Origin: Candidatus Latescibacterota bacterium
GTDB taxonomy: Bacteria; Latescibacterota; UBA2968; UBA8231
Assembly: GCA_965204725.1 (NCBI GenBank)
Contig: OZ242005.1
Coordinates: 2,464,001-2,528,000, forward strand
Reading direction: 5' to 3'
DNA length: 64,000 nucleotides
How positions within the stretch are numbered: the first letter of the stretch is position 1; every line of letters starts with the position of its first letter. The position numbers were made by a program, and so were the translations under genes. A model generated the notes under the pieces. It saw only the letters and a program-made list of their open reading frames with translations. It searched no databases and was not told the origin of the DNA. Shown in pieces: positions 38,734 through 56,149 of this stretch.

Positions 38734-40161
38734 ATGCCGACGACGATCCTTCGATTAGGAATGCTCCTAATCTTAGCGGCCCTTGGCGTTCCAGCGGCAG
38801 CACAGACCGAATTATTCTTTGCCGCGGGCGTCGATAGCACCGGCTGGGCGCAGGCGCAAAGCAATGCCGACGGTCACGTGCTGATTGAATCGCCGCAGTA
38901 TCCGCGCGGCCTGTGGCTGCACTTGGTCGATGACGCGGGGGACGCGCTCGCTGGCCTGCAAGTGGAATACCAAGAGCAACCCGACCGCTTGGTGGCAATT
39001 CGTTGCGTCGATCCGGTTGGCGCGATGCGGGAGACGCTGGTTTGGACGCGGCCCGAAGGGGACGCCCTCCGCTTGACGCTCAAGCCGAAAGAAGCGGGCG
39101 ACCTGCCAGCGGGGCTAGCGTCCATAGACTGGCAAATCAACCCGAGCGTTGTATCGCTGCTCGATCCCGTGGAGGACATCTGGCCGGTCGGCTGGGAAGC
39201 GGTGGCGGCGTTTTTGCGAGCGCGGTGGCAGGATCAAGCCGGACGAGTCGCCATCCAACTTGATGCCAGTGCTTCCTTCGCCGTTGAGCTAGATCGCCCA
39301 GAGGCCATAGAGACGCTGGTGGCGCACCTGCAACAGGTACTGCAGTCAGCCGAGGCCGCACTCGGAGCAATCAATCCCTTGAAAATGCAAATGCAGGTAT
39401 TTGCGGGGAATCTGGGGCTGCAAGAAGGCGTGATCCTCCGCGTCTCTTGGTTCGACGACCCGAATCTGGAGCATGAGGTGGAGGCGGCACTAGGCCGACC
39501 ACAAGGCCCCTTTACACCAGAAGACTTTGCTACGCTGACCGAGCTTTCGGCTAACTCGAAAGACATTCGTAGTTTGGCGGGTATCGAGTACTTTGCGGCC
39601 CTGCGAAAGCTGGAGTTATACCTCAACCACATTGCTGATCTGACCCCACTAAGCCAACTAAAAAACCTAAATAGGCTAAACCTGAGATCCAATCAGATTG
39701 TTGATCTGACCCCGATAAGCCAACTAAACAGCCTACACGGGCTATATCTTGACGACAACCAGATTGTTGATCTGACCCCACTAAGCCAACTAAAAAACCT
39801 GAGGTGGCTATCTTTTGACGACAACCAGATTACTGATCTGACCCCGATAAGCCAACTAAACAGCCTAGAGTCGCTACGTCTGGGCGACAACCAGATTGTT
39901 GATCTGACCCCGATAAGCCAACTAAAAAACCTGAGGTGGCTATCTCTGGGCGGCAACCAGATTGACGATCTGACCCCGATAAGCCAACTAAACAGCCTAG
40001 AGTGGCTATATCTGGGCGGCAATCAGATTGTTGATCTGACCCCGATAAGCCAACTAAAAAACCTGAATAGGCTATATCTGTTCGGCAACCCCCTCAGCGA
40101 CCAAGCCCTCACTGAGCATATCCCCGCCCTGCAAGCACGAGGCGTCGAAGTCTACTACTAA
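38734..40161 (+). CDS. Secreted LRR protein 3 (unknown N-terminal domain plus ~8 LRRs)
   Basis: Signal peptide, ~230-aa domain shared with LRR4/5, FDDPNLE cap, 22-aa repeats. Confidence 0.92.
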   Translation: MPTTILRLGMLLILAALGVPAAAQTELFFAAGVDSTGWAQAQSNADGHVLIESPQYPRGLWLHLVDDAGDALAGLQVEYQEQPDRLVAIRCVDPVGAMRETLVWTRPEGDALRLTLKPKEAGDLPAGLASIDWQINPSVVSLLDPVEDIWPVGWEAVAAFLRARWQDQAGRVAIQLDASASFAVELDRPEAIETLVAHLQQVLQSAEAALGAINPLKMQMQVFAGNLGLQEGVILRVSWFDDPNLEHEVEAALGRPQGPFTPEDFATLTELSANSKDIRSLAGIEYFAALRKLELYLNHIADLTPLSQLKNLNRLNLRSNQIVDLTPISQLNSLHGLYLDDNQIVDLTPLSQLKNLRWLSFDDNQITDLTPISQLNSLESLRLGDNQIVDLTPISQLKNLRWLSLGGNQIDDLTPISQLNSLEWLYLGGNQIVDLTPISQLKNLNRLYLFGNPLSDQALTEHIPALQARGVEVYY

Positions 40162-40234
40162 ACCCACCCCCACCCGTCCCTCCGCTGCGAAAGGCCGCGC
40201 CGATTTTGGTATCCCTATCGCATTTATCGTATTA

Positions 40235-40335
40235 TCCCAATAGACCAAACGCGCTCGGCCGGCGTCATAATAGATCGAAGGGCGCGTCTCCACGTTAAAC
40301 GTCACAGGCTGGGAAACCGAGTAGGGAACCTTGTC
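40235..40335 (+). repeat. 101-bp leader repeat, copy 1
   Basis: Matches 42028-42128 with one mismatch; ends at the LRR4 ATG. Confidence 0.92.
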
Positions 40336-42036
40336 ATGTACCTGTCCATCCTTCGATTAGGAATGCTCCTAACACTGGCGGCAGGCGTTCCAGCCGTAGC
40401 ACAGCCCGAATTATTCTTTGCCGCGGGCGTCGATAGCACCGGCTGGGCACAGGCGCGAAGCAATGCCGATGGCCACGTGCTGATTGAATCGCCGCAGTAT
40501 CAACGGGGTCTGTGGCTGCACTTGGTCGATGACGCGGGGGACGCGCTCGCCGGCCTGCAAGTGGAATACCAAGAGCAACCCGACAGCTTGATTGCCATTC
40601 GCTGCGTCGATCCGGTTGGCGCGATGCGGGAGACGCTAATTTGGACTCGGCCCGAAGCAGACGCCCTCCGCTTGACGCTCAAGCCGAAAGAAGCGGGCGA
40701 CCTGCCGGCGGGGCTCAGCCGCATGGACTGGCGCATTGATCCAACTGCTGAAGCACTGTTGGAGCCGGTGGCGGAAATCCGGCGGATTGGATGGGAAGCG
40801 GTGGCGGCGTTTTTGCGAGCGCATTGGCAGAATCAAGCCGGACGAGTGGCAGTGCAGTTCAATGCCCGCACCTTGGCGATTGAAGTGGATCACCCAGAGG
40901 ACGTCGAGACGCTGGTGACGCACCTGCAACAGACACCGCAGCCAGCCGATGCCGCGCTCGGAACAATCAATCTCTTGGCAATGCAGGTATTTGCGGGGAA
41001 TCTGGGGCTACAAGAAGGCGCGATCCTTCTCCGCATCCCTTTGTTCGACGACCCGAATCTGGAGAGCGTGGTGAGGAAGGCACTAGGCCGACCACAAGGC
41101 CCCTTTACACCAGAGGATTTTGCTTCTCTGACCGAACTTTCGGCCATCAGGAAATCCATTCTTAGTTTGGCGGGTATCGAGTACTTTGCGGCCCTGCGAA
41201 AGCTAGTGTTATACGGCAACCTGATTACTGATCTGACCCCAATAGGTCAATTAAAAAGCCTAGATACGCTAGGGCTGGGCGAGAACCGGATCGTTGACCT
41301 GAACCCAATTAGCCAACTAAACAGCCTGAAACTGCTATCTCTTGCCTACAACCAGATCATCGACTTGACCCCACTAAACGAACTAAAAAGCCTGAATGCG
41401 CTATATCTTGGCGAGAACCGGATCGTTGACCTGACCCCAATTAGCCAATTAAAAAACCTGCGATTCCTAGAGCTGTCCCATAACGAGACTGACGACCTGA
41501 CCCTAATTAGCCAACTAAATAGCCTAGAGTGGCTCGGCCTGTCCGGCAACCAGATTGACGATCTAACCCCAATTAGCCAGTTAAAAAACCTGAATAGGCT
41601 ATGGCTGTCCCATAACGAGATTGACGACCTGAACCCAATTAGCCAATTAAAAAACCTGCAATACCTATTCCTGAGCAGAAACCGGATCGTTGACCTGAAC
41701 CCATTAAACCAACTAAAAAGCCTGCAACACCTACGTCTGGACGAGAACCGGATCGTTGACCTGAACCCAATTAGCCAACTAAAAAACCTGCAATACCTAT
41801 TTCTGAACAGAAACCGGATCGTTGACCTGAACCCAATTAGCCAACTAGACAGCCTGAAGCACCTAAGACTGTCCCGCAACCCGATTACCGACCTAAGCCC
41901 TCTAGTCGCTCATTCCGGGCTAGGAGACGGTGATGAGGTGTATTTGGAAAGCATTATCCTCAGCGACCAAGCCCTTACCGAACATATCCCCGCTCTGAAA
42001 GCGCGAGGCGTCACTGTTTACTATACTTCCCAATAG
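40336..42036 (+). CDS. Secreted LRR protein 4 (~11 LRRs)
   Basis: Paralog of LRR3/5; its stop codon lies inside leader repeat copy 2. Confidence 0.92.
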   Translation: MYLSILRLGMLLTLAAGVPAVAQPELFFAAGVDSTGWAQARSNADGHVLIESPQYQRGLWLHLVDDAGDALAGLQVEYQEQPDSLIAIRCVDPVGAMRETLIWTRPEADALRLTLKPKEAGDLPAGLSRMDWRIDPTAEALLEPVAEIRRIGWEAVAAFLRAHWQNQAGRVAVQFNARTLAIEVDHPEDVETLVTHLQQTPQPADAALGTINLLAMQVFAGNLGLQEGAILLRIPLFDDPNLESVVRKALGRPQGPFTPEDFASLTELSAIRKSILSLAGIEYFAALRKLVLYGNLITDLTPIGQLKSLDTLGLGENRIVDLNPISQLNSLKLLSLAYNQIIDLTPLNELKSLNALYLGENRIVDLTPISQLKNLRFLELSHNETDDLTLISQLNSLEWLGLSGNQIDDLTPISQLKNLNRLWLSHNEIDDLNPISQLKNLQYLFLSRNRIVDLNPLNQLKSLQHLRLDENRIVDLNPISQLKNLQYLFLNRNRIVDLNPISQLDSLKHLRLSRNPITDLSPLVAHSGLGDGDEVYLESIILSDQALTEHIPALKARGVTVYYTSQ

Positions 42037-42128
42037 ACCAAACGCGCTCGGCCGGCGTCATAATGGATCGAAGGGCGCGTCTCCACGTTAAACGTCACAG
42101 GCTGGGAAACCGAGTAGGGAACCTTGTC
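42028..42128 (+). repeat. 101-bp leader repeat, copy 2
   Basis: Matches 40235-40335; ends at the LRR5 ATG. Confidence 0.92.
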
Positions 42129-43685
42129 ATGTACCTGTCCATCCTTCGATTAGGGATGCTCCTAACACTAGCGGCGCTTGGCGTCCCAGCGGCAGCGCAG
42201 CCCGAATTATTCTTTGCCGCGGGCGTCGATAGCACCGGCTGGGCGCAGGCGCAAAGCAATGCCGACGGCCATGTGCTGATTGAATCGCCGCAGTACCAAC
42301 GGGGTCTGTGGCTGCACTTGGTCGATGACGCGGGAGACGCGCTCGTCGGCCTTCAGGTCGAATACCAAGAGCGTCCCGACCGCTTGGTGGCGATTCGCTG
42401 CGTCGATCCGGCCAGAAAGGTGCGGGAGACGCTAATTTGGACTCGACCCGAAGGCGATGCCCTCCGCTTGACGCTCAAGCCGAAAGAAGGCGGCGACCTG
42501 CCAGCGGGGCTAGCGTCCATAGACTGGCAAATCGACCCGAGTGTTGAATCGCTGCTCGATCCAGTGGAAGAGACCCGGCTGATCGGCTGGGAAGCGGTGG
42601 GGGCATTTCTGCGGGAACGCTGGCAGAATCAAGCCGGACGAGTGGCGGTGCAGTTCAATGCCCGTACCTTGGCGATTGAGGTGGATCACCCGGAGAGCGC
42701 AGAGACGCTGGTGGCACACCTGCAACAGGCACAGCAGCCAGCCGAGGCCGCGCTCGGAGCAATCAGCCCCTTGAAAATGCAAATGCAGATATTTGCGGGG
42801 AATCTTGGTCTGCAAGAAGGCGTCATCCTCGACGTCTCTTTATTCGATGACCCGAATCTGGAGCGTATGGTGAGAGCAGCACTAGGCCGACCGCAAGGCC
42901 CTTTTACACCAGAGGATTTTGCTACGCTGACCGAGCTTGGACCTGGCGGGCAAGATATTCGTAGTTTGGCGGGTATCGAGTACTTTGCGGCCCTGCTAAC
43001 GCTGGATTTACACCGCAACCAGATTACTGACCTGACCCCACTAAACCAACTAAAAAACCTGATGCGGCTATGGCTGGGCCGAAACCAGATTGACGACCTG
43101 ACCCCACTAAACCAATTGAAAAACCTGAATGCGCTAAATCTGTGGGGCAATCAGATCGTTGATCTGACTCCAATTAGCCAATTAAAAAACCTGCAAGACC
43201 TAGATCTAGACGACAACCAGATTGTTGACCTGACCCCAATCAGCCAATTGAAAAACCTAGATACGCTAGCCCTGGGCCGAAACCAGATTGTTGACCTGAC
43301 CCCACTAAACCAACTAAAAAACCTGAATGCGCTATGGCTGTACAGCAATCAGATCGTTGATCTGACTCCAATTAGCCAATTAAAAAACCTGAATACGCTA
43401 GTCCTGAGCCGAAACCAGATTGTTGACCTGACCCCACTAAACCAATTAAAAAACCTGAATAGGCTATTCCTGAGCTACAACCAGATTGTTGACCTGACCC
43501 CACTAAACCAATTAAAAAACCTGCAATACCTAGGTCTAGAAGACAACCAGATTGTTGACCTGACCCCGATAAGCCAACTAAAAAACCTGAATAGGCTATA
43601 TCTGTACGACAACCCCCTCAGCGACCAAGCCCTAACCGAACAGATCCCCGCCCTAGAGGCAAGGGGCGTCACCGTCTCCTACTAA
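42129..43685 (+). CDS. Secreted LRR protein 5 (~10 LRRs)
   Basis: Start reassigned to ATG 42129 (MYLSIL) by alignment with LRR4. Confidence 0.92.
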   Translation: MYLSILRLGMLLTLAALGVPAAAQPELFFAAGVDSTGWAQAQSNADGHVLIESPQYQRGLWLHLVDDAGDALVGLQVEYQERPDRLVAIRCVDPARKVRETLIWTRPEGDALRLTLKPKEGGDLPAGLASIDWQIDPSVESLLDPVEETRLIGWEAVGAFLRERWQNQAGRVAVQFNARTLAIEVDHPESAETLVAHLQQAQQPAEAALGAISPLKMQMQIFAGNLGLQEGVILDVSLFDDPNLERMVRAALGRPQGPFTPEDFATLTELGPGGQDIRSLAGIEYFAALLTLDLHRNQITDLTPLNQLKNLMRLWLGRNQIDDLTPLNQLKNLNALNLWGNQIVDLTPISQLKNLQDLDLDDNQIVDLTPISQLKNLDTLALGRNQIVDLTPLNQLKNLNALWLYSNQIVDLTPISQLKNLNTLVLSRNQIVDLTPLNQLKNLNRLFLSYNQIVDLTPLNQLKNLQYLGLEDNQIVDLTPISQLKNLNRLYLYDNPLSDQALTEQIPALEARGVTVSY

Positions 43686-47125: not shown

Positions 47126-47935
47126 TCATTCTGCTTCCAGAACGTCCGGATCTAGCTGATACCAAAACACCGTGCCGGATTCAATGAGGTCCTGTATCCG
47201 ATCATCGCAGCGCAGACCGGCGACGGCGGGGTATGCCCGCCTATCTGTGAACTGGGTCAGTAACTTGGCGTTGCGCATGGCTCGATGGGTATCCCGTCCA
47301 TTGGCGGTGAAGGAGATTTCTACGGCAATGTAACAAAGGTCGCCATCGGAGTCGGTGGCCTCCATAATCAGGTCGGCCCGGCGGTAGCTCTTCAACTCGT
47401 TTGCGGGAATGGTCGACGTGTTGGCATGGTCGGTCAGCGTCCACAGATCATCTTGCGTGAGGTTTTTCGTCCGCCGCAGGCCCATTTCCCTAGCGATGGT
47501 AGTGGCTTCTCTGAGCGCGGCGGTGCGGGCGTGACCGCCTTTGAGTATGCCGACATCATTTTGGATAGACCTCACTTGGGTTTTGAGGGTGCTGACGTCT
47601 TCTTTCAGGGTGCTAACGTCTTCTTTGAGGGTGCTAACGTCTTTTTTCAGCGTACTGACATCTTTTTTCAGCGTACTGACGTCTTCTTGGATAACCTCTA
47701 CTTTGGTTTCAAGGGCATCGAGACGTCGGTTCGTGGCCTCGACGAAGCTGTGTATCTCGGCGACGAAGTTGTGCATCTCAGCGACGAAGCTGTGCATCTC
47801 GGCGACGAACTGAGTGAACTTTTTGGGCAGTTCGATCAATTCGCGCGACAGCAGCCGAGTGTTCAGGGCCTCAACCCAATCGGGGTTTTCGTCCAGTACG
47901 CGAAGCAAGTCTTCCATGGTATGGATCGTGGTCAT
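47126..47935 (-). CDS. Coiled-coil heptad-repeat protein with PD-(D/E)xK-like C-terminal domain
   Basis: FVAEMHS and EDVSTLK heptads; ADLIM...AVEIS...RA..NA C-terminal domain. Confidence 0.7.
   Translation of the reverse strand: MTTIHTMEDLLRVLDENPDWVEALNTRLLSRELIELPKKFTQFVAEMHSFVAEMHNFVAEIHSFVEATNRRLDALETKVEVIQEDVSTLKKDVSTLKKDVSTLKEDVSTLKEDVSTLKTQVRSIQNDVGILKGGHARTAALREATTIAREMGLRRTKNLTQDDLWTLTDHANTSTIPANELKSYRRADLIMEATDSDGDLCYIAVEISFTANGRDTHRAMRNAKLLTQFTDRRAYPAVAGLRCDDRIQDLIESGTVFWYQLDPDVLEAE
47582..47803 (-). repeat. Two in-frame 21-bp tandem repeat tracts
   Basis: 5 units at 47582-47686 and 3 units at 47741-47803. Confidence 0.9.
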
Positions 47936-49652: not shown

Positions 49653-50192
49653 ATGACCCAACTCTGCCCCTCTACGGCCATTGAAGGCGTTTATGTCGCC
49701 GCGCTACAATCGCACGGCGACGAGCGGGGCCGCTTTACCGAGGTGTATCGCCAAGAGTGGTTTCCCCAGCACTGGGACGCCTTGCAGTGGAACCGTTCGG
49801 ACTCGCAACAGGGCGTGTTGCGCGGCCTGCACTATCACCACCACCAAATTGACTACTGGCACTGCGGCATGGGCGCGTTGCGCGTCGGGCTGCTCGATCT
49901 GCGCCGCAGCTCGCCGACCCGCGGTCGGGGGCAGGTCCTCGAATTAGGTCAAGAGCTATTGCAGGGCGTCTTTATCCCGGCGGGGGTCGCGCACGGCTTT
50001 TACGCCGTTACCAACGCAATGCTTTTTTATTTAGTCGATGCTTACTACGACGGCACGGACGAGTGGGGAGTGGCTTGGGACGATCCCGATGGGGGATTGG
50101 ACTGGGGCATTGAGGGGACGCCGATCCTCTCGCCGCGAGATCGGGCGAATCCGCGACTGCGAGACATTCCCGCCGAGGATCTGCCGAGCTAG
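49653..50192 (+). CDS. rfbC: dTDP-4-dehydrorhamnose 3,5-epimerase
   Basis: DERGRF, GVLRGLHY, DLRRSSPT, GVAHGF, WDDP, LSPRD. Confidence 0.92.
   Translation: MTQLCPSTAIEGVYVAALQSHGDERGRFTEVYRQEWFPQHWDALQWNRSDSQQGVLRGLHYHHHQIDYWHCGMGALRVGLLDLRRSSPTRGRGQVLELGQELLQGVFIPAGVAHGFYAVTNAMLFYLVDAYYDGTDEWGVAWDDPDGGLDWGIEGTPILSPRDRANPRLRDIPAEDLPS
50111..50192 (+). repeat. Left boundary repeat of island (rfbC 3' end)
   Basis: 55 of the first 60 nt are identical to 55204-55263. Confidence 0.92.
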
Positions 50193-50419
50193 GATACGTT
50201 GTTCGACCGCCGAGTACTGATCCCTTATTGAAGTTCAAACCGCTCAATCTAACATAGATGATATGGTGGTATGGGAGTGGACGGAAATCTCCCATGTACC
50301 CTATTATTGAATAGATAATCTAAAGCGAATGAATCCGTTAGTTCGTGGGTGAAATTAGCCTGAATTGGCTGCCCGTGCTCATGCCGATGTGAGTACAAGG
50401 TTACAAAGGAGGTCCCCGA

Positions 50420-51289
50420 ATGATTGCAGAGACGAGCACCGTAGTCTATCGAGCCATCAGCTTGGGTGCAGGAGCCCAGAGTTCAGTCCTAGCACTTCTC
50501 TTGTCGCGGTCTGACCCTCGCTTGGTCGAACTTGGGTACCCCAAGCCGGACGTCGCTATATTCGCCGACACCGGATGGGAGCCGGACTATGTGTACCGTC
50601 ACTTGGACTGGCTTGAGGAGCAACTTGAGTATCCATTGCTTCGAGTGTCAGATGGCGACCTGAAGACCAACTTAAAAAAAGGACGCACGGTATCGAACCA
50701 TCGCTTTATCGATGTCCCTTTGTTTATGGTCAATCAGGATGGCAAGAAGGGCATGCTGCGACGACAATGCACCAACCACTACAAGATCAGACCTATCTAT
50801 CGTCGGATCAGGGAAGAGGCAGGTGGCCGGCGTGGCCGGCCATTCCCAAAGGGTGAACACGCCGAAATGTGGCTTGGGATTTCACTAGACGAGGTAGGCC
50901 GCATGAAGCCGAGTAGGGAATCTTGGGTTGAGCATCGCTGGCCGCTTGTGGATCTCGGCATGTCGCGCCGCGATTGCGTTGCGTGGTTCTCCGCTGAGTA
51001 TCCAGGCCGCCACTTGCCTCGATCGGCCTGTGTAATATGCCCGTACCGATCCGACGAACATTGGCTCGAACTAAAGAGGTCAGAACCAGCCAGTTACGAC
51101 GAAGCCGTAGAGTTCGACCGTTGGCTACGACGAAGCAAAAAGACGCCTGTACGCAAGCTGCTGAATGGCCGCCCATACCTTCACGCCGCACGGCGGCCTC
51201 TTAGCAGTATCATAGAAGAACGGGAGACGGAAGGCGCGAACGAGATCAACAACTTCAATAACGAGTGCGAGGGCCTCTGCGGTGTCTGA
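50420..51289 (+). CDS. PAPS-reductase-like / adenine nucleotide alpha-hydrolase (PP-loop) protein
   Basis: SLGAGAQSS, ADTGWEP, RQCTNHYKIRPI, GISLDE, SACVICPY, terminal ECEGLCGV; AGGAGG RBS. Confidence 0.8.
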   Translation: MIAETSTVVYRAISLGAGAQSSVLALLLSRSDPRLVELGYPKPDVAIFADTGWEPDYVYRHLDWLEEQLEYPLLRVSDGDLKTNLKKGRTVSNHRFIDVPLFMVNQDGKKGMLRRQCTNHYKIRPIYRRIREEAGGRRGRPFPKGEHAEMWLGISLDEVGRMKPSRESWVEHRWPLVDLGMSRRDCVAWFSAEYPGRHLPRSACVICPYRSDEHWLELKRSEPASYDEAVEFDRWLRRSKKTPVRKLLNGRPYLHAARRPLSSIIEERETEGANEINNFNNECEGLCGV

Positions 51290-52529
51290 AACAGGGCTGA
51301 TAACGGTCAGTCCTAAGTTTCCGCTATATTCCTATCAGCGGCAGGTGCTGGCTGACATCGTCCGTGCCCTATCATCTCCTGAGCGTCGAGCTGTCGCTCA
51401 TCTTCCCACCGGTGCCGGAAAGACCAGAATCGCAGCCCATACAGCCTGTCACTTGCTGAACGAGAAAGATACCAATGATTCCCTTGTCATCTGGTTGGCG
51501 GCTACAGAGGAACTTTGCGAACAGGCGGCAGCCCAACTCTCAGAGGCTTGGACTCATCTGGGACGGCGAGATGCCTGCATTCATCGACACTGGGGAAATC
51601 GGTCGCTTGATCTAAGGCGTCTGCCATCTGGGTTCTTAGTGACAGGTCTTGCCAAACTGCGTTCTGCTGCATTCCAAGACAACACCCTTCTTGCCCACCT
51701 TGCACACTGTGCCGCGGCCATCATCTTTGACGAAGCTCATCAGGCCGTTGCGAAAACCTACTCCTTTATAACTGAGCAGCTATGCAGTGTAAGGCCGCCG
51801 CTTCTCGGCCTTACGGCCACGCCGGGACGCTCAGCGCATCTGACTGAGGACGACTATCGACTTGCCAGCATGTTCAATCACAACAAAGTTTCGATAGATC
51901 CACGAGGACACGACAATCCCGTCACCTATCTCATCCAAAACCGCTATTTGGCCGACCCGCGCTTTGTGCCAGTCAGCTTCGAGTCTGATGCTACCATCGC
52001 AGACCCGCAGCCCGGCATGGATTACAGTACAGATGATCTCGACCGCCTAGGCCGCAACCATGAACGCACACTCAAGATCGCCGAACTCGCAAAGGCCGCG
52101 GCGGCACGTCACCCTCGTACCATTGTGTTCTGTCCGTCGGTAGAAAGTGCCTTGGAATGCAACAAACTCCTTCGAGAAAAAGAGATCGTAACTAACGTCA
52201 TTACCGCCAATACTCCTAGTGAAGACCGTCGGGCTATCATCGACTTTTTTAGAAGCGACAGCAGGGAGCATGTCGTGTTATTCAACTATGGCGTACTCAC
52301 CGCCGGCTTCGATGCGCCCCGGACGCGATGCGTCATCATCGCTCGCCCCACCACATCACTGGTACTCTACTCGCAAATGGCGGGACGAGCAATGCGCGGT
52401 CCTAGAGCGGGTGGAAATTCAAAAGCTGAGATACTCACCGTTGCCGACACGAATCTCCCGGGATTCGGGTCTGTGACTGATGCCTTCACAAATTGGGAGG
52501 AACTATGGTCGACCAACTCGCCGAACTAA
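51282..52529 (+). CDS. SF2 DEAD/DEAH-box helicase (ResIII-like)
   Basis: LPTGAGKT, DEAH, LTAT, GFDAP, QMAGRAMRG. Confidence 0.93.
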   Translation: MSETGLITVSPKFPLYSYQRQVLADIVRALSSPERRAVAHLPTGAGKTRIAAHTACHLLNEKDTNDSLVIWLAATEELCEQAAAQLSEAWTHLGRRDACIHRHWGNRSLDLRRLPSGFLVTGLAKLRSAAFQDNTLLAHLAHCAAAIIFDEAHQAVAKTYSFITEQLCSVRPPLLGLTATPGRSAHLTEDDYRLASMFNHNKVSIDPRGHDNPVTYLIQNRYLADPRFVPVSFESDATIADPQPGMDYSTDDLDRLGRNHERTLKIAELAKAAAARHPRTIVFCPSVESALECNKLLREKEIVTNVITANTPSEDRRAIIDFFRSDSREHVVLFNYGVLTAGFDAPRTRCVIIARPTTSLVLYSQMAGRAMRGPRAGGNSKAEILTVADTNLPGFGSVTDAFTNWEELWSTNSPN

Positions 52530-54358
52530 AAGATGCAGATCGCAGCCTCTTTCCGAGCGATTTAACCATACGTGCTCTACGAGATAGTCGGTATCACAAC
52601 ACCGCCTATGCCATTGCCGAACTCATCGACAACTCGGTAGAGGCGAATGCTGGACAGATTGACCTCCTCTGCATGGAAGCACCTCAGAGAGTAGGGGTAC
52701 GGACTCAGCGACGAGTTTCCGAAGTGGCAGTCCTTGACAACGGCGATGGGATGGACGTAAAGACCCTCCTTGACGCCCTCAAATTTGGCGGGGGAACCCG
52801 TCATAATTCGGATAGAGGAGTAGGGAAATACGGCATGGGCCTCCCCACCTCGTCAATGTCGCAATGCAAAAGGGTGGATGTATGGACGTGGCAGGATGGC
52901 CTAGATTCAGTATGGCACTCCAGCATCGACGCTGACGACATTGAGCAAGGGAACCACAAGGTTCCCATTCCTGATCAAGAGACACCTATACCTGAGGTCT
53001 GGAGGGAGGCCGGCAGCGACGAAATATATGAACATCGCTCGGGTACGCTTGTCGTTTGGACCAAACTGGACAAAATTCAGTGGAGAACCGGCAGCACGAT
53101 CCTCAGACACACAGCCCGAGAGGTCGGTCGGATCCATCGGCACTGGATTGATGCGGAGATGACAAAAATACGAGTCGGCTTTTTTCTTAATAACCGCCCT
53201 ACCGAAATTAAGAGCGAGGACTGTATTGTCGCAAACGATCCTCTCTACCTGATGAATCCTTCCTCTACTCCTGTGCCTTGGAGTAACGAACCGATGTTTA
53301 AAGAATGGGCCAAGAAAGAATATACGCCTACCGTGGAGGGCAAAGAGGTCACTATTGAAGTGAAGTATTCAATCGTTAAGCCTGAAGCCTTGCAGACGAA
53401 CAGAGTTACGCAGAATCCCGGTGCTGAAAAGCATGGTACTCACGCCAGACACAACATCGGCGTATCGGTTGTTCGGGAAGACAGGGAGATTGTGCTCGAA
53501 GACGCCTTTCTTAGAGAAGGTGGGAGTGCTGAGAATCCACAGAACCGCTGGTGGGGCTGTGAGGTGCATTTCCCTCGCAGTTGCGATGAGTTGTTTGGCG
53601 TAGATCACAACAAGCAGATGGCTGCAAATTTCACACATGCAGCGAAGACCCTCGCTCGTGACGACCGCCCCAATCAGGTAATACTAGACGAGATGGGAAT
53701 CGACGACGACATCATCTATACCATAGTAGGGGATATTCGAGACGAAACGCGCACCATGATGAGTCAAATAAGGCAGATGTTTGATCAGAGACGGAACCTA
53801 CAGAATGGGGGCGGCGGAAGAAGCCCCGAAAAGAAAGCCGCAAAGACCGCTACTGACGCAGACCGAGAGGCTATAGAGGCTGGTGAAGAAACACCGACTA
53901 AGACAGATAAAGACCGCGAGCAAATTCCATCCCAAGAGCGGGAGGCTCGTCTCACGCAACAGTTCATTGAATCTGGTCAAGCTGCTCAAGACGCCCAACA
54001 ACTCGCGAAGCAATTGGTACAGGAAGACCTGTCATACCAGTTCAACTCGGATCAGCTTGACGGATTCCAGATTTTTAACGTGCGCTCGAACCAAGGAGTT
54101 CTGCACATCAATCTCAACACCGATCACCCGATCTATGACCTCCTCAAGCACATTGAAAACGGCCTTCCAGAAGATATCGACGAGAGCAGCCCTGCATTCC
54201 AAGCCAGCGTTGCGATCAGATTATTGTTGTCGTCGTGGGCTCGAATGGAAGACCAGACCGAATCACGTGAAGAGCGAATACGCATTCAGGACGTTGCCAT
54301 GAATTGGGGCCGTCAGGTAGATAAGGCCATCAATCAACTGCGCGATAGAGAGGGGTAG
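52505..54358 (+). CDS. GHKL / MORC-family ATPase
   Basis: AIAELIDNS, DNGDGM, GKYGMGL, GTLVVW; S5-like region with GVSVVREDREI and FGVDHNKQ; start ATG 52505 after GGGAGG. Confidence 0.9.
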   Translation: MVDQLAELKDADRSLFPSDLTIRALRDSRYHNTAYAIAELIDNSVEANAGQIDLLCMEAPQRVGVRTQRRVSEVAVLDNGDGMDVKTLLDALKFGGGTRHNSDRGVGKYGMGLPTSSMSQCKRVDVWTWQDGLDSVWHSSIDADDIEQGNHKVPIPDQETPIPEVWREAGSDEIYEHRSGTLVVWTKLDKIQWRTGSTILRHTAREVGRIHRHWIDAEMTKIRVGFFLNNRPTEIKSEDCIVANDPLYLMNPSSTPVPWSNEPMFKEWAKKEYTPTVEGKEVTIEVKYSIVKPEALQTNRVTQNPGAEKHGTHARHNIGVSVVREDREIVLEDAFLREGGSAENPQNRWWGCEVHFPRSCDELFGVDHNKQMAANFTHAAKTLARDDRPNQVILDEMGIDDDIIYTIVGDIRDETRTMMSQIRQMFDQRRNLQNGGGGRSPEKKAAKTATDADREAIEAGEETPTKTDKDREQIPSQEREARLTQQFIESGQAAQDAQQLAKQLVQEDLSYQFNSDQLDGFQIFNVRSNQGVLHINLNTDHPIYDLLKHIENGLPEDIDESSPAFQASVAIRLLLSSWARMEDQTESREERIRIQDVAMNWGRQVDKAINQLRDREG

Positions 54359-54360
54359 GA

Positions 54361-55206
54361 ATGTACGGGCGGCCCGGAGACATGTTGAGCAGTGTTTGTT
54401 CAGGTGCCCAACATCTCATCATCGCGGCACCGTACATCAAGGCTGATGCTCTTACTAAAGTTCTGGCCGACGTTAGTCCGGCAGCATCTCTTATATGTAT
54501 CACGAGGTGGAGTCCGCACGACCTCGCTGTGGGTGCTTCCGACACCGAATGCCGCACTATTGTCTCTGAGCGTGGAGGCTCATTCAGGCTCCACCCGTCA
54601 CTTCACGCCAAATACTATCGAGTGGATAACGTGGTCCTCATCGGGTCTGCTAATCTGACCTCTTCCGCATTGGGCTGGTCGCGCCAGCCTAATCTAGAAA
54701 TCCTCTGTCTTCCGGGAGACGACTTCGACGCGGACACCTTTCAGCAATTTCTGTTTGAGGGAGCAAGAGAAATCGGTGACGAGGAATTCGCACATTGGGA
54801 ATCCATAGCTAAGATCGGTGCTCAAGAGACGGGAAAGGCAACTGGCGGCCAACCCCGGCTTGACACTTGGCGACCGGCAACTCGCGACTTTAGGAACTTA
54901 GAACTCGCCTATCAGGGCAGAGAAGACGAGATCGCTTCATTCGACGAGCAGCGAGCGGCACAGCGCGACATCCGAGCTCTCCTAATCCCGCCTAGCTCAA
55001 CCGATGAACAGGTCCGAATGTGGGCATCGGCTTGTCTGCTTGCTGCCCCTTTCACCAACGCCGTGATACGGCTGCATGGTATAGAGGAACCAAATGCATC
55101 CCGCTCGCTGGCCGAGACCTATAATCTCGGAAGAGCTGAGGCTCGCAGGGATATGGAAACTGTCCAGAACTGGCTCACATTCCTCATGCCAGAACTACTG
55201 AACTGA
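54361..55206 (+). CDS. Phospholipase D-family (single HKD) nuclease-like protein
   Basis: IAAPYI, LHAKYYRVDNVVLIGSANLT, NLE. Confidence 0.88.
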   Translation: MYGRPGDMLSSVCSGAQHLIIAAPYIKADALTKVLADVSPAASLICITRWSPHDLAVGASDTECRTIVSERGGSFRLHPSLHAKYYRVDNVVLIGSANLTSSALGWSRQPNLEILCLPGDDFDADTFQQFLFEGAREIGDEEFAHWESIAKIGAQETGKATGGQPRLDTWRPATRDFRNLELAYQGREDEIASFDEQRAAQRDIRALLIPPSSTDEQVRMWASACLLAAPFTNAVIRLHGIEEPNASRSLAETYNLGRAEARRDMETVQNWLTFLMPELLN

Positions 55207-55286
55207 GAGGACGCCGATCCTTTCGCCGCGAGATCGGGCGAACCCGCGACTGCGGGATATTCCACAGAGAGGAACTGCTGACCTAA
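55204..55286 (+). repeat. Right boundary repeat: displaced rfbC 3' end
   Basis: Encodes RTPILSPRDRANPRLRDIP, then a 1-nt indel; its TAA overlaps the ATG of the next gene. Confidence 0.92.
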
Positions 55287-56149
55287 TGACATTTGATTTG
55301 ATGAAAGCACTCTTGGATACTGAGGCCCTGCGTCTCGCCCCACCGGGCGAGGTGTTTTGGTACACCTCGGGCACGGTAGGCCCTTACTACCTCAACGCAC
55401 ACTATCTCTACGGCGGCCCGGCCGCAGCCACGGAATTGCTATCCTTCATCGATGCGGCCAAGGAGCAGGAGGACTTCCCCCAGCGCTTGCGGGAGCGCGT
55501 CTTGAAGCAGTGCGCCGAGGACGCCGTCTATCGCCAAGTCATTGACTCCTTAGTCGCTCAAGCACAGGCCAGCGGGGCGCGGTTTGACGCGGTGTCGGGT
55601 GGCGAGCGCCGCGACTGGTTTTTTTCGCTGGCCGTGGCCGAGCGGTTGGGCAAGCCCTCATTGCTGATCTACAAGGATCGGCGCACCGCGTTACTGGAGG
55701 GAGAAACGCTGCGCCCAGCAGCGGCCAACTCAGTAGAAACGCTGCACGTGGCCGATATGGTGACCGAAGCGTCGAGTTACCTCCGCGCTTGGATCCCGGC
55801 AGTCGCAGCCGGCGGCGGGCGGATCGCCTATGCGGCCAATGTGGTCGATCGCGGGCAAGGCGGCTTGGAGGTGCTCAAAGCCGAGGGCATTGCGGCCGGA
55901 GCACTTATGCGCGTGGATGAGGCGTTCTTTGGCCGCATAGGCGAGTTGGGGCAGGTAGATGAGGCACAACGGGCAAGGCTCATTGAGTACTACCGCGACC
56001 CACACGGGGCGATGCGGGCCTTCTTGGAAGCGCATCCCGAGTTTTTGCGGCGCGCACTCCACGGCCGCGATGCACAGGCGGCGCAGCGCGCCCGCTTGCT
56101 CATCGCCGAAAACCCCTACGCGCTCGACGAGGCCCTCTGGCAAGGCTGA
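55286..56149 (+). CDS. Orotate phosphoribosyltransferase-like protein
   Basis: FWYTSGTVGPYYLN, SGGERRDWFFS, PRPP-loop-like LHVADMVTEASS, VVDRGQGG. Confidence 0.75.
   Translation: MTFDLMKALLDTEALRLAPPGEVFWYTSGTVGPYYLNAHYLYGGPAAATELLSFIDAAKEQEDFPQRLRERVLKQCAEDAVYRQVIDSLVAQAQASGARFDAVSGGERRDWFFSLAVAERLGKPSLLIYKDRRTALLEGETLRPAAANSVETLHVADMVTEASSYLRAWIPAVAAGGGRIAYAANVVDRGQGGLEVLKAEGIAAGALMRVDEAFFGRIGELGQVDEAQRARLIEYYRDPHGAMRAFLEAHPEFLRRALHGRDAQAAQRARLLIAENPYALDEALWQG

Follow-up and report, generated by a model that had tools for sequence, protein, structure and literature searches.

In the DndFGH and SspFGH systems, a phosphorothioate (PT) mark on the DNA blocks restriction. The mark reportedly also blocks restriction by TdpAB, in which TdpA is said to be a hexameric translocase and TdpB a nuclease, and we know of no MORC ATPase, superfamily 2 (SF2) helicase or phospholipase D-family (PLD) protein in Tdp. 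Passages of PMC12914056 and PMC13223576 on TdpABC (An et al. 2025) state that tdpC alone suffices for PT synthesis, and a passage of PMC10853773 describes Pbe as accompanying PT modification. Operons that combine a MORC ATPase with an SFII helicase and a nuclease, HKD nucleases being among those mentioned, are read as restriction–modification (R-M) systems in sections of Iyer, Abhiman & Aravind 2008 (PMC2292703). Here we describe a cassette of four same-strand open reading frames (ORFs) that occupies positions 50420-55206 of a stretch of 64 000 nucleotides (the window) from contig OZ242005.1 of a Candidatus Latescibacterota bacterium. It consists of gene 1 (P0001), a relative of SspD and DndC, and of genes 2, 3 and 4 (P0002-P0004), referred to as the trio, for a helicase, a GHKL ATPase and a PLD protein (Table 1; G and L numbers are genome and locus labels). 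Judged by its sequence relationships, it is best called an Ssp-associated restriction trio whose three-to-four-gene writer appears to have given way to a single enzyme drawn from the phage and plasmid pool, and we give a probability of about 0.55 to the reading that the cassette is a compact, horizontally mobile, PT-type R-M system with a single-protein writer.

By its sequence matches the cassette falls outside Ssp, SspE/FGH, Pbe, BREX type 4 and Dnd. It resembles SspABCD in that gene 1 is homologous to SspD, with three cysteines in common, and in that the trio has orthologues adjoining sspB, sspC and sspD (with sspA or dndB in some loci), but it has no SspA, SspB or SspC and its gene 1 is of another clade. 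The sequence comparisons given below indicate that the trio is orthologous to the trio linked to sspB, sspC and sspD, and that in the compact cassette the writer was displaced in place. Identification of the trio with SspFGH was rejected, because the sections of PMC8092258 on these proteins give SspF a Walker A motif and describe the C-terminus of SspH as FtsK-like; nor is the restriction arm SspE (DUF262-type), and PADLOC, which is without a model for the trio, gave no SspE, SspF, SspG or SspH match for genes 2-4. The cassette is similar in architecture to TdpABC, as far as passages on the latter describe it, with one PP-loop-type gene for PT synthesis and an ATP-driven restriction arm, but it has four genes rather than three, and no chain named Tdp came up when the PDB was searched with P0001, with the profile of the gene 1 family, or with P0002, P0003 and P0004.

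The operons of Iyer et al. share with the cassette the combination of GHKL/MORC ATPase, SFII helicase and nuclease in the sections that describe them, but DNA methylases serve there as the modifier, and PMC2292703 mentions no partner of PP-loop or PAPS-reductase type, the terms 'phosphoadenosine', 'PP-loop' and 'Dnd' occurring 0 times. As in PbeABCD and SauUSI, an HKD nuclease goes together with an SF2 motor, gene 2 matching both PbeA and SauUSI and gene 4 having SauUSI as its best fold match; in the cassette, however, nuclease and motor are separate proteins with the MORC ATPase between them, and there is no PbeB, PbeC or PbeD (CxC ABC ATPase, DndE-like) and no HKD-helicase fusion. By analogy, the trio resembles a split HKD-helicase nuclease of SauUSI/PbeA type to which a MORC clamp has been added, in the manner of the operons of Iyer et al. 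PADLOC gave no match to BrxP, BrxC, PglZ or BrxL of BREX type 4 on the four proteins, and no strong match at all, the best being SspD (1.3e-12), PbeA (6.7e-19), MzaB (3e-13) and DrmC (4.1e-6); membership of a system catalogued in PADLOC was therefore rejected. In the literature searched, which did not extend to subscription papers or supplements, we found no description of a system of PAPS reductase, helicase, MORC/GHKL ATPase and PLD protein, and no name for the trio that stands beside sspBCD. The supplements of PMC8092258 (Table S2), PMC10853773, PMC12914056 and PMC12839542 may list this neighbourhood. An earlier note on this DNA, made from the sequence letters, had called the combination a candidate undescribed system; the combination as such does appear new within that literature, but its parts map onto known PT-based defence, and tdpC, as cited in PMC12914056, is a precedent for a PT writer of one gene.

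The first line of evidence for our reading comes from the neighbours of the trio elsewhere. Searched by tblastn with P0003, plasmids yielded 51 records; in 13 the match extended over at least 80% of P0003, and eight of the 13 were inspected. At six of these eight loci (Hymenobacter, Trichormus, Pannonibacter, Geminocystis, Roseobacter and Mesorhizobium), genes for a helicase, an 'ATP-binding protein' and a PLD protein adjoin an annotated PAPS-reductase-family gene. Pannonibacter, Roseobacter and Mesorhizobium have annotated genes for a DUF4007 protein (the SspB family) and an ATPase of ~1000-1100 residues, Trichormus and Geminocystis for DndB, and Trichormus, Geminocystis and Mesorhizobium for a cysteine desulfurase. 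The annotation of the seventh locus (Cyanobacterium HL-69) is too sparse to judge, and the eighth (Agrobacterium) has a divergent form without an annotated PLD or PAPS-reductase gene. Within the window's phylum, relatives of P0003 were found in 24 of 168 genomes and fall into two types, one close (76-100% identity, in the compact cassette) and the other distant (33-38%). Homologues of both SspD and SspC lie within ~8 kb of the distant-type trio at 10 of the 11 loci fetched, accompanied by SspB at nine of these ten and by a cysteine desulfurase at five. From these proportions, six of eight plasmid loci and 10 of 11 in the phylum, the trio appears to be a regular neighbour of the Ssp PT module; taking plasmid and phylum loci together, a writer-type gene stands beside the trio at 16 of the 19 further loci inspected.

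The second line is the relationship of gene 1 to the Ssp and Dnd writers. The AlphaFold2 (AF2) model of gene 1, with a predicted local distance difference test score (pLDDT) of 93.5, matched CysH (6vpu, E 5.9e-5, template-modelling score 0.40-0.52), LarE and the [4Fe-4S] thiolase NcsA in Foldseek, and gene 1 is accordingly predicted, from the model, to be a PP-loop ATP pyrophosphatase of the PAPS-reductase fold. PADLOC matched it to SspD, and phrog_424 gave 5.5e-39; there was no NCBIfam match, and PDB sequence searches with P0001 gave nothing useful. The family profile matched a single solved chain, PDB 21fy chain C ('PptA', 270 aa; E 6.9e-4), over its C-terminal half with the CxxC motif included, and this chain is not among the PDB matches listed by Foldseek for the gene 1 model. 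In an alignment of 80 sequences, the loop S14 L15 G16 x G18 x Q20 S21 is invariant or almost so, and G16, G18, Q20, D50, R115, C117, E158, R161, C204, C207 and C287 are invariant; the C-terminal CxxxC tail, in which C283 and C287 are conserved, is specific to the clade. When the 80-member profile was compared by hhalign with the trio-linked SspD of Pannonibacter, the probability was 98.8% (E 1.1e-16), with the PP-loop, the FADTG-type motif, the RQCT..YK motif and the C..C motif in register, and C117, C204 and C207 consequently match cysteines of SspD. This shows homology of gene 1 with SspD and DndC, and the three-cysteine site C117/C204/C207 probably holds a [4Fe-4S] cluster. The earlier note had pointed to DndC, SspD and CysH as the structures with which gene 1 should be compared, and the relationship with CysH was recovered by fold and that with SspD by profile; its suggestion that gene 1 might instead make a nucleotide signal found no support in this analysis.

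Homology with SspD does not appear to extend to orthology. The trio-linked SspDs share just 23% identity with gene 1, compared with 38-44% for solitary phage and plasmid genes (those of a Pelagibacter phage and a Geobacillus phage, ArdC-adjacent plasmid genes, and the PAPS part of a methylase fusion). We computed a quick maximum-likelihood tree of 89 rows, comprising 24 cassette copies, 45 representatives of unknown context, the PAPS part of five DUF6339 fusions, five phage or plasmid genes, nine SspD and one DndC, with a midpoint root for drawing only; left out were one SspD with an internal stop, the cassette loci L008, L010, L011, L015, L021, L028, L030 and L031, and the representatives after the first 45 of 255-320 residues. 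All 24 cassette copies group together in a single clade inside the solitary family (Shimodaira–Hasegawa-like approximate likelihood-ratio test, SH-aLRT, 99), and the SspD clade (SH-aLRT 96) is separated from the gene 1 clade by long branches, which argues that gene 1 is not an orthologue of the SspD of ssp loci.

The family to which gene 1 belongs is large, with 4123 clusters at 50% identity (E <= 1e-3), and its members have a characteristic setting. On conjugative plasmids of Agrobacterium and Ancylobacter, a family gene comes immediately after an ArdC anti-restriction gene and overlaps it, with a ParB-domain gene nearby, and on a Mesorhizobium phage-plasmid the member makes up the C-terminal portion of an annotated DNA cytosine methyltransferase. 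Some representatives have an N-terminal DUF6339 or winged helix; in P0129, P0130, P0132 and P0227, which are 41-49% identical to gene 1, the DUF6339 domain is N-terminal and ~270 residues long, and we found no mention of DUF6339 in the literature searched. The phage members are solitary among replication genes. A metagenome scan with the family alignment A2, which matches the PAPS part only, gave 80 loci, among which there was one distant helicase and one DGQHR gene, and a GHKL or PLD neighbour at 0 of 80; a scan with the DUF6339 fusion P0130 gave no loci. Gene 1 is thus a member of the solitary phage and plasmid 'PAPS reductase' genes (phrog_424), but these are either solitary or joined in one protein with a methylase or a DNA-binding domain, and none of the 80 sampled loci has the trio. 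We infer that such a context would be expected for an orphan enzyme of DNA modification with which mobile elements protect themselves. A phage fusion of a PAPS domain with Dam gives anti-Dnd activity, according to the part of Piel et al. (bioRxiv 10.1101/2021.05.05.442762) that describes it.

The proteins of the trio have family and fold matches of the following kinds. Gene 2 matched ResIII (5.8e-20), Helicase_C (6.9e-15) and also DEAD in Pfam, RadD in NCBIfam (3.1e-31), and RadD (7.9e-20) and SauUSI (1.6e-6) in PDB; its match to PbeA covers the helicase part only (profile positions 249-418 of 672). It is 40-43% identical to helicases adjacent to sspBCD, and the helicases of the orthologous trios are given as 35-43% identical. 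Gene 3 matched HATPase_c_3 (2.4e-21) and, far under the cut-off, MzaB (9.9e-18), its best PDB sequence match being human MORC2 (E 1.5e-4), and it is 34-39% identical over its full length to the 'ATP-binding protein' adjoining sspBCD. With an SFII helicase and a nuclease adjacent, its sequence has what is looked for in a prokaryotic MORC/GHKL ATPase of the R-M kind. Gene 4 matched PLDc_2 of Pfam (3.6e-5, 24.1 bits) under the cut-off of 27, and a PDB sequence search with P0004 gave nothing useful. An alignment of 30 sequences showed H82, K84, S96, N98, T100, N111 and E113 to be invariant, and the AF2 model (pLDDT 92.9) matched the nuclease parts of SauUSI (4.8e-5), the NgoAVII R-protein (2.2e-4), NucT (6.7e-4) and Zucchini in Foldseek, its helical C-terminal half having no structural match there. 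By motif and modelled fold, gene 4 is a predicted PLD-superfamily (HKD) nuclease, and it is 27-36% identical to the PLD orthologues in Ssp-linked trios.

The four genes travel as a unit. A scan for gene 1 over one genome per species gave 31 loci, of which 27 have all four genes in order; the earlier note had allowed for the case that the PP-loop gene has no conserved linkage, and these loci show the four families consistently linked. Gene 1 identity across the 31 loci is 66-96%, and the unit spans at least five phyla, the labels of the metagenome-assembled genomes (MAGs) being Latescibacterota, Chloroflexota/Dehalococcoidia/Caldilineaceae/Tepidiformaceae, Rhodothermaceae, Binatia, Spirochaetia and Alphaproteobacteria. 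Of the four exceptions, L010 and L031 are interrupted by contig ends; in L015 and L021 gene 1 is complete and the restriction genes are truncated or missing. One copy in G084 has a stop codon in the MORC gene. This order of decay, in which gene 1 outlasts the restriction genes, is in the R-M direction and fits, weakly, a mark that blocks the trio. Clustering of the ORFs of the loci revealed no fifth conserved gene, the flanks being varied and housekeeping in nature. The phosphoribosyltransferase (PRTase)-like gene downstream of the cassette is common to close relatives only (three of 31 loci), and we therefore place it outside the unit. In a Spirochaetia MAG (L020:11731-13954), an insertion of ~2.2 kb separates the MORC-like gene from the PLD gene.

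The gene 1 tree is discordant with the labelled taxonomy, Binatia and Alphaproteobacteria copies, for example, lying among Latescibacterota copies, and this discordance fits recent horizontal spread. Public runs labelled sponge metagenome, from two studies, contain 52-65% of the sampled words of the cassette (window 50200-55300). The identity of 66-96% across phyla, in MAGs and in these runs, points to recent exchange within one habitat. At a finer scale, we compared the insertion site in 31 genomes of the same genus, the window's own included. A direct repeat of 60 nt, with 92% identity between its copies, brackets the insert and duplicates the 3' end of an epimerase gene. Four genomes (G000, G145, G134 and G133) have the whole cassette at the window's site. 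In G140 the usual site is empty (L172) and the cassette lies at a different chromosomal site (G140:C2:2242000-2252000, L171), the shared part being only 50406-55193 at 87% identity. In the aligned genomes G146 and G143 the site is empty, a single repeat copy being followed directly by the PRTase start, and the same empty-site pattern of flanks recurs in many other genomes of the genus. G131 (L168, G131:C1:1664000-1668000) has, between the epimerase and PRTase flanks, a scar of 266 nt that is 87% identical to 52305-52569, the gene 2/gene 3 junction. The cassette is a discrete, horizontally mobile insert that is present, absent or decayed within the genus; no integrase or transposase was found within or beside it.

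The organization of the insert (Table 1) agrees with that described in the earlier note, with four coupled genes, a gene 1/gene 2 overlap of 8 nt and a gap of 2 nt between genes 3 and 4; the start of gene 3 overlaps gene 2, and gene 3 has an in-frame Met at residue 5. The motifs quoted in that note are likewise present in the translations: gene 1 has SLGAGAQSS, CVIC, ECEGLC and six Cys, gene 2 DEAH, gene 3 ELIDN and gene 4 HxK...GSxN. Family scans of the insert proteins found no methylase, DndB/D/E, SspB/C/E or cysteine desulfurase, which upholds the absences that had been claimed for the island, and the lower guanine-plus-cytosine (GC) content attributed to it, 0.51-0.55 over 50.5-55 kb against 0.60-0.69 in the flanks, is joined as evidence of an island by the 60-nt repeat and by the empty sites in the same genus. 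Upstream lie genes for a SEC-C protein and a dTDP-sugar epimerase (49653-50192), and downstream those for the PRTase-like protein (55286-56149) and an SMC protein. The leader is missing from empty sites and is not common to the G140 copy, in which the DNA match begins at 50406. A promoter scan of the leader gave one site, where 3.7 were expected from shuffled sequences, and this provides no evidence of function; promoter and terminator scans together gave results at or under chance. Further stretches of low GC lie at 41-43.5 kb and 47-49 kb of the window. Three tandem paralogues at 38734-43685 (475, 566 and 540 aa), also of low GC, share an N-terminal region and have long runs of 22-residue leucine-rich repeats. 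On the minus strand at 47126-47935, in a low-GC stretch, is a gene for a 269-aa protein of near-identical heptad repeats (DVSTLKK/E), for which Pfam gave a coiled coil only.

Table 1. Features of the cassette and its borders in the window, and a separate cluster in the same genome
Feature	Position	Strand	Size	Assignment or remark
Left direct repeat copy	50111-50170	.		Within 3' end of epimerase gene
Leader of insert	50193-50419	+		AT-rich, non-coding; one promoter-like site, 50278-50307
Gene 1 (P0001)	50420-51289	+	289 aa	SspD/DndC-related PP-loop (PAPS-reductase-fold) enzyme; proposed single-protein DNA modifier
Gene 2 (P0002)	51282-52529	+	415 aa	Predicted SF2 DEAH helicase/translocase core; GTG start
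Gene 3 (P0003)	52493-54358	+	621 aa	Predicted MORC-like GHKL ATPase, long C-terminal region; TTG start
Gene 4 (P0004)	54361-55206	+	281 aa	Predicted single-HKD PLD-family nuclease, helical C-terminal domain
Right direct repeat copy	55204-55263	.		Begins at gene 4 stop codon; precedes PRTase-like gene
Second PT-type cluster (L048)	G000:C1:3826000-3845000			DndA/SspA-like desulfurase (PADLOC 5.6e-158), 400-aa DndC (1.1e-115), DUF262-type 'Orf5/HEC-06' (3.5e-69), SNF2/DpdE/ZorD-like helicase (~1e-58)

Whether the cassette would need a second writer was considered from the genomes that carry it. The window's genome (5.43 Mb in 2 contigs, 94% complete, ~10% contaminated) gave no match to plasmid SspC or SspB, in the sense of none found with these queries. 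Of ten other cassette genomes queried with SspD, four had a match (G134, G085, G088 and G089) and six had none, and of the five that were also queried with DndC, only G145 had one. G140, G133, G084 and G082, which are 95-99% complete, have the cassette and no SspD or DndC match with these queries, and from these four genomes we argue that the cassette may need no other writer.

Putting these relationships together, we propose the following mechanism. Gene 1 would by itself mark the host's own DNA, adenylating the DNA target with ATP, after which sulfur would substitute for the adenylate. The sulfur might be held on the free iron of the three-Cys [4Fe-4S] cluster or be relayed via the C-terminal CxxxC, and it could be delivered by a housekeeping cysteine desulfurase, for which the 10 Aminotran_5 matches in the window's genome outside the insert are possible donors. 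We suggest this route of adenylation and sulfur transfer because of the homology with SspD and DndC, the fold matches to Fe-S-dependent thiolases and the title of the Tdp paper (An et al. 2025), which names an adenylated intermediate. The SF2 translocase, the MORC-type GHKL clamp ATPase and the HKD nuclease would make up the restriction arm, scanning the DNA and cutting or nicking it where the mark is missing. In this scheme we infer that gene 1 modifies DNA, that the mark blocks rather than activates the trio and that the three restriction proteins form one complex. That the cassette works by R-M at all, whatever the mark, we consider quite probable, whereas the more specific proposal that the mark is PT is tentative and, on the sequence relationships, falls somewhat short of even odds. 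The same division of labour, in which gene 1 marks self and genes 2-4 restrict, had been put forward in the earlier note, and it now has partial support from the occurrence of the trio with a full Ssp module elsewhere, the SspD/DndC homology and the persistence of gene 1 after loss of the trio.

A number of findings count against a PT-type R-M system with a single-protein writer. The Pfam PAPS_reduct match of gene 1 (PF01507, E 3.4e-3, 17.9 bits) lies under the cut-off of 22.5, and its PP-loop is degenerate, SLGAGAQS in place of SGGxDS. Gene 1 is also without the partners of the characterised Ssp and Dnd writers, namely the SspB nickase, the SspC/DndD ATPase and DndE. The helicases adjacent to sspBCD carry ~120 extra N-terminal residues that are absent from the compact gene 2. 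The phage of Piel et al. is absent from the 50 phage records, three of them Vibrio phages, that gene 1 matched by tblastn (E <= 1e-3), so the link to the anti-Dnd experiment is by domain family only and that experiment may concern another PAPS clade. The eleventh of the phylum loci (L081, G134:C1:3812000-3831999) has an Ssp-type trio without a writer within ~7 kb, flanked by housekeeping genes and an IS3-family transposase, which suggests that the trio may tolerate being uncoupled; elsewhere, G134 has the compact cassette with gene 1, and two SspD homologues. Finally, the window's own genome contains, 1.3 Mb off, a second PT-type cluster (L048), among whose scanned ORFs there is neither DndD nor DndE, and any PT in this genome could have this separate DndA-DndC-DUF262-SNF2 cluster as another source.

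Several of these points would be accommodated if the logic were still that of R-M but the mark were something other than a backbone phosphorothioate, such as a base modified by thiolation or by some other adenylate-activated route, or a stable adduct, adenylyl or otherwise, with the trio re-tuned to read it. The long, well-supported branches that set the gene 1 clade apart from SspD would be consistent with such a change, as would the clade-specific CxxxC tail, the missing nickase and ATPase partners and the compact helicase, and the nearest solved folds include LarE and NcsA, which are thiolases of other substrates. However, the only other known partner set of the trio is the Ssp PT module, gene 1 and SspD have the three cysteines in common, and, in the passages on Tdp, a single-gene PT writer is already documented; we consider another mark unlikely.

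Still less likely, in our judgement, is that the trio is a defence sufficient in itself, without a self-mark, which would sense structures of the invader's DNA or be activated by a mark, leaving gene 1 an accessory role as regulator, as sensor, in counter-counter-defence or in protecting the cassette during transfer. Part of PMC10853773 argues that modules for PT modification and for restriction are in many cases decoupled in function, and SspE is described in sections of PMC8092258 as PT-activated rather than PT-blocked; the solitary trio at L081 and the mostly solitary occurrence of the gene 1 family on mobile elements point the same way. Such independence of gene 1 and trio would sit poorly with the 8-nt overlap of genes 1 and 2, with their linkage in 27 of 31 loci across phyla, with gene 1 being the survivor in decayed copies and with the writer-type gene found beside most of the other trios. 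That the cassette is a decaying, non-functional remnant of an SspABCD-plus-trio locus that has lost sspA, sspB and sspC was rejected as very improbable, because, although full Ssp-plus-trio loci are common in the window's phylum and decay is visible in L015, L021, the G084 copy and the G131 scar, gene 1 lies in a separate clade at 23% identity to the SspD of such loci, all four ORFs are intact in the window, the gene order is conserved across at least five phyla and at different genomic sites, as in G140, and there are cassette genomes without an SspD or DndC match to the queries used. The earlier note had foreseen that helicase-MORC modules might normally sit in full clusters, this one being a degraded remnant; the trio does normally occur with ssp genes, but the cassette does not look like their remnant.

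A PT-type R-M system with a single-protein writer thus being preferred, the occurrence of the trio beside sspBCD has a bearing on that module as well, since the trio may explain part of the 83.9% of sspBCD loci that, according to a passage of PMC8092258, are without a known restriction partner. A wider proposal, which goes well beyond the cassette and which we regard as rather doubtful, is that the whole gene 1 family consists of self-sufficient, single-protein sulfur or backbone modifiers of DNA, working without a nickase, an ABC ATPase or a desulfurase of their own, that phages and conjugative plasmids use them as portable anti-restriction marks, and that one of them was captured here by a MORC-helicase-PLD machine. 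If this were true, a counter-defence gene would have been turned into the 'self' arm of a defence system, and new chemistry, in the form of the three-Cys cluster and the CxxxC relay, and a new way of reading a mark by a MORC clamp would be implied. Should gene 1 alone write the mark, 289 residues would suffice for a minimal and portable DNA modifier, and the activity of gene 1 would explain thousands of so far unexplained phage and plasmid 'PAPS reductase' genes. With its four genes, the cassette would then be a tractable model in which to study the way a prokaryotic MORC ATPase works together with a helicase and a nuclease, and the way such machinery distinguishes marked from unmarked DNA.

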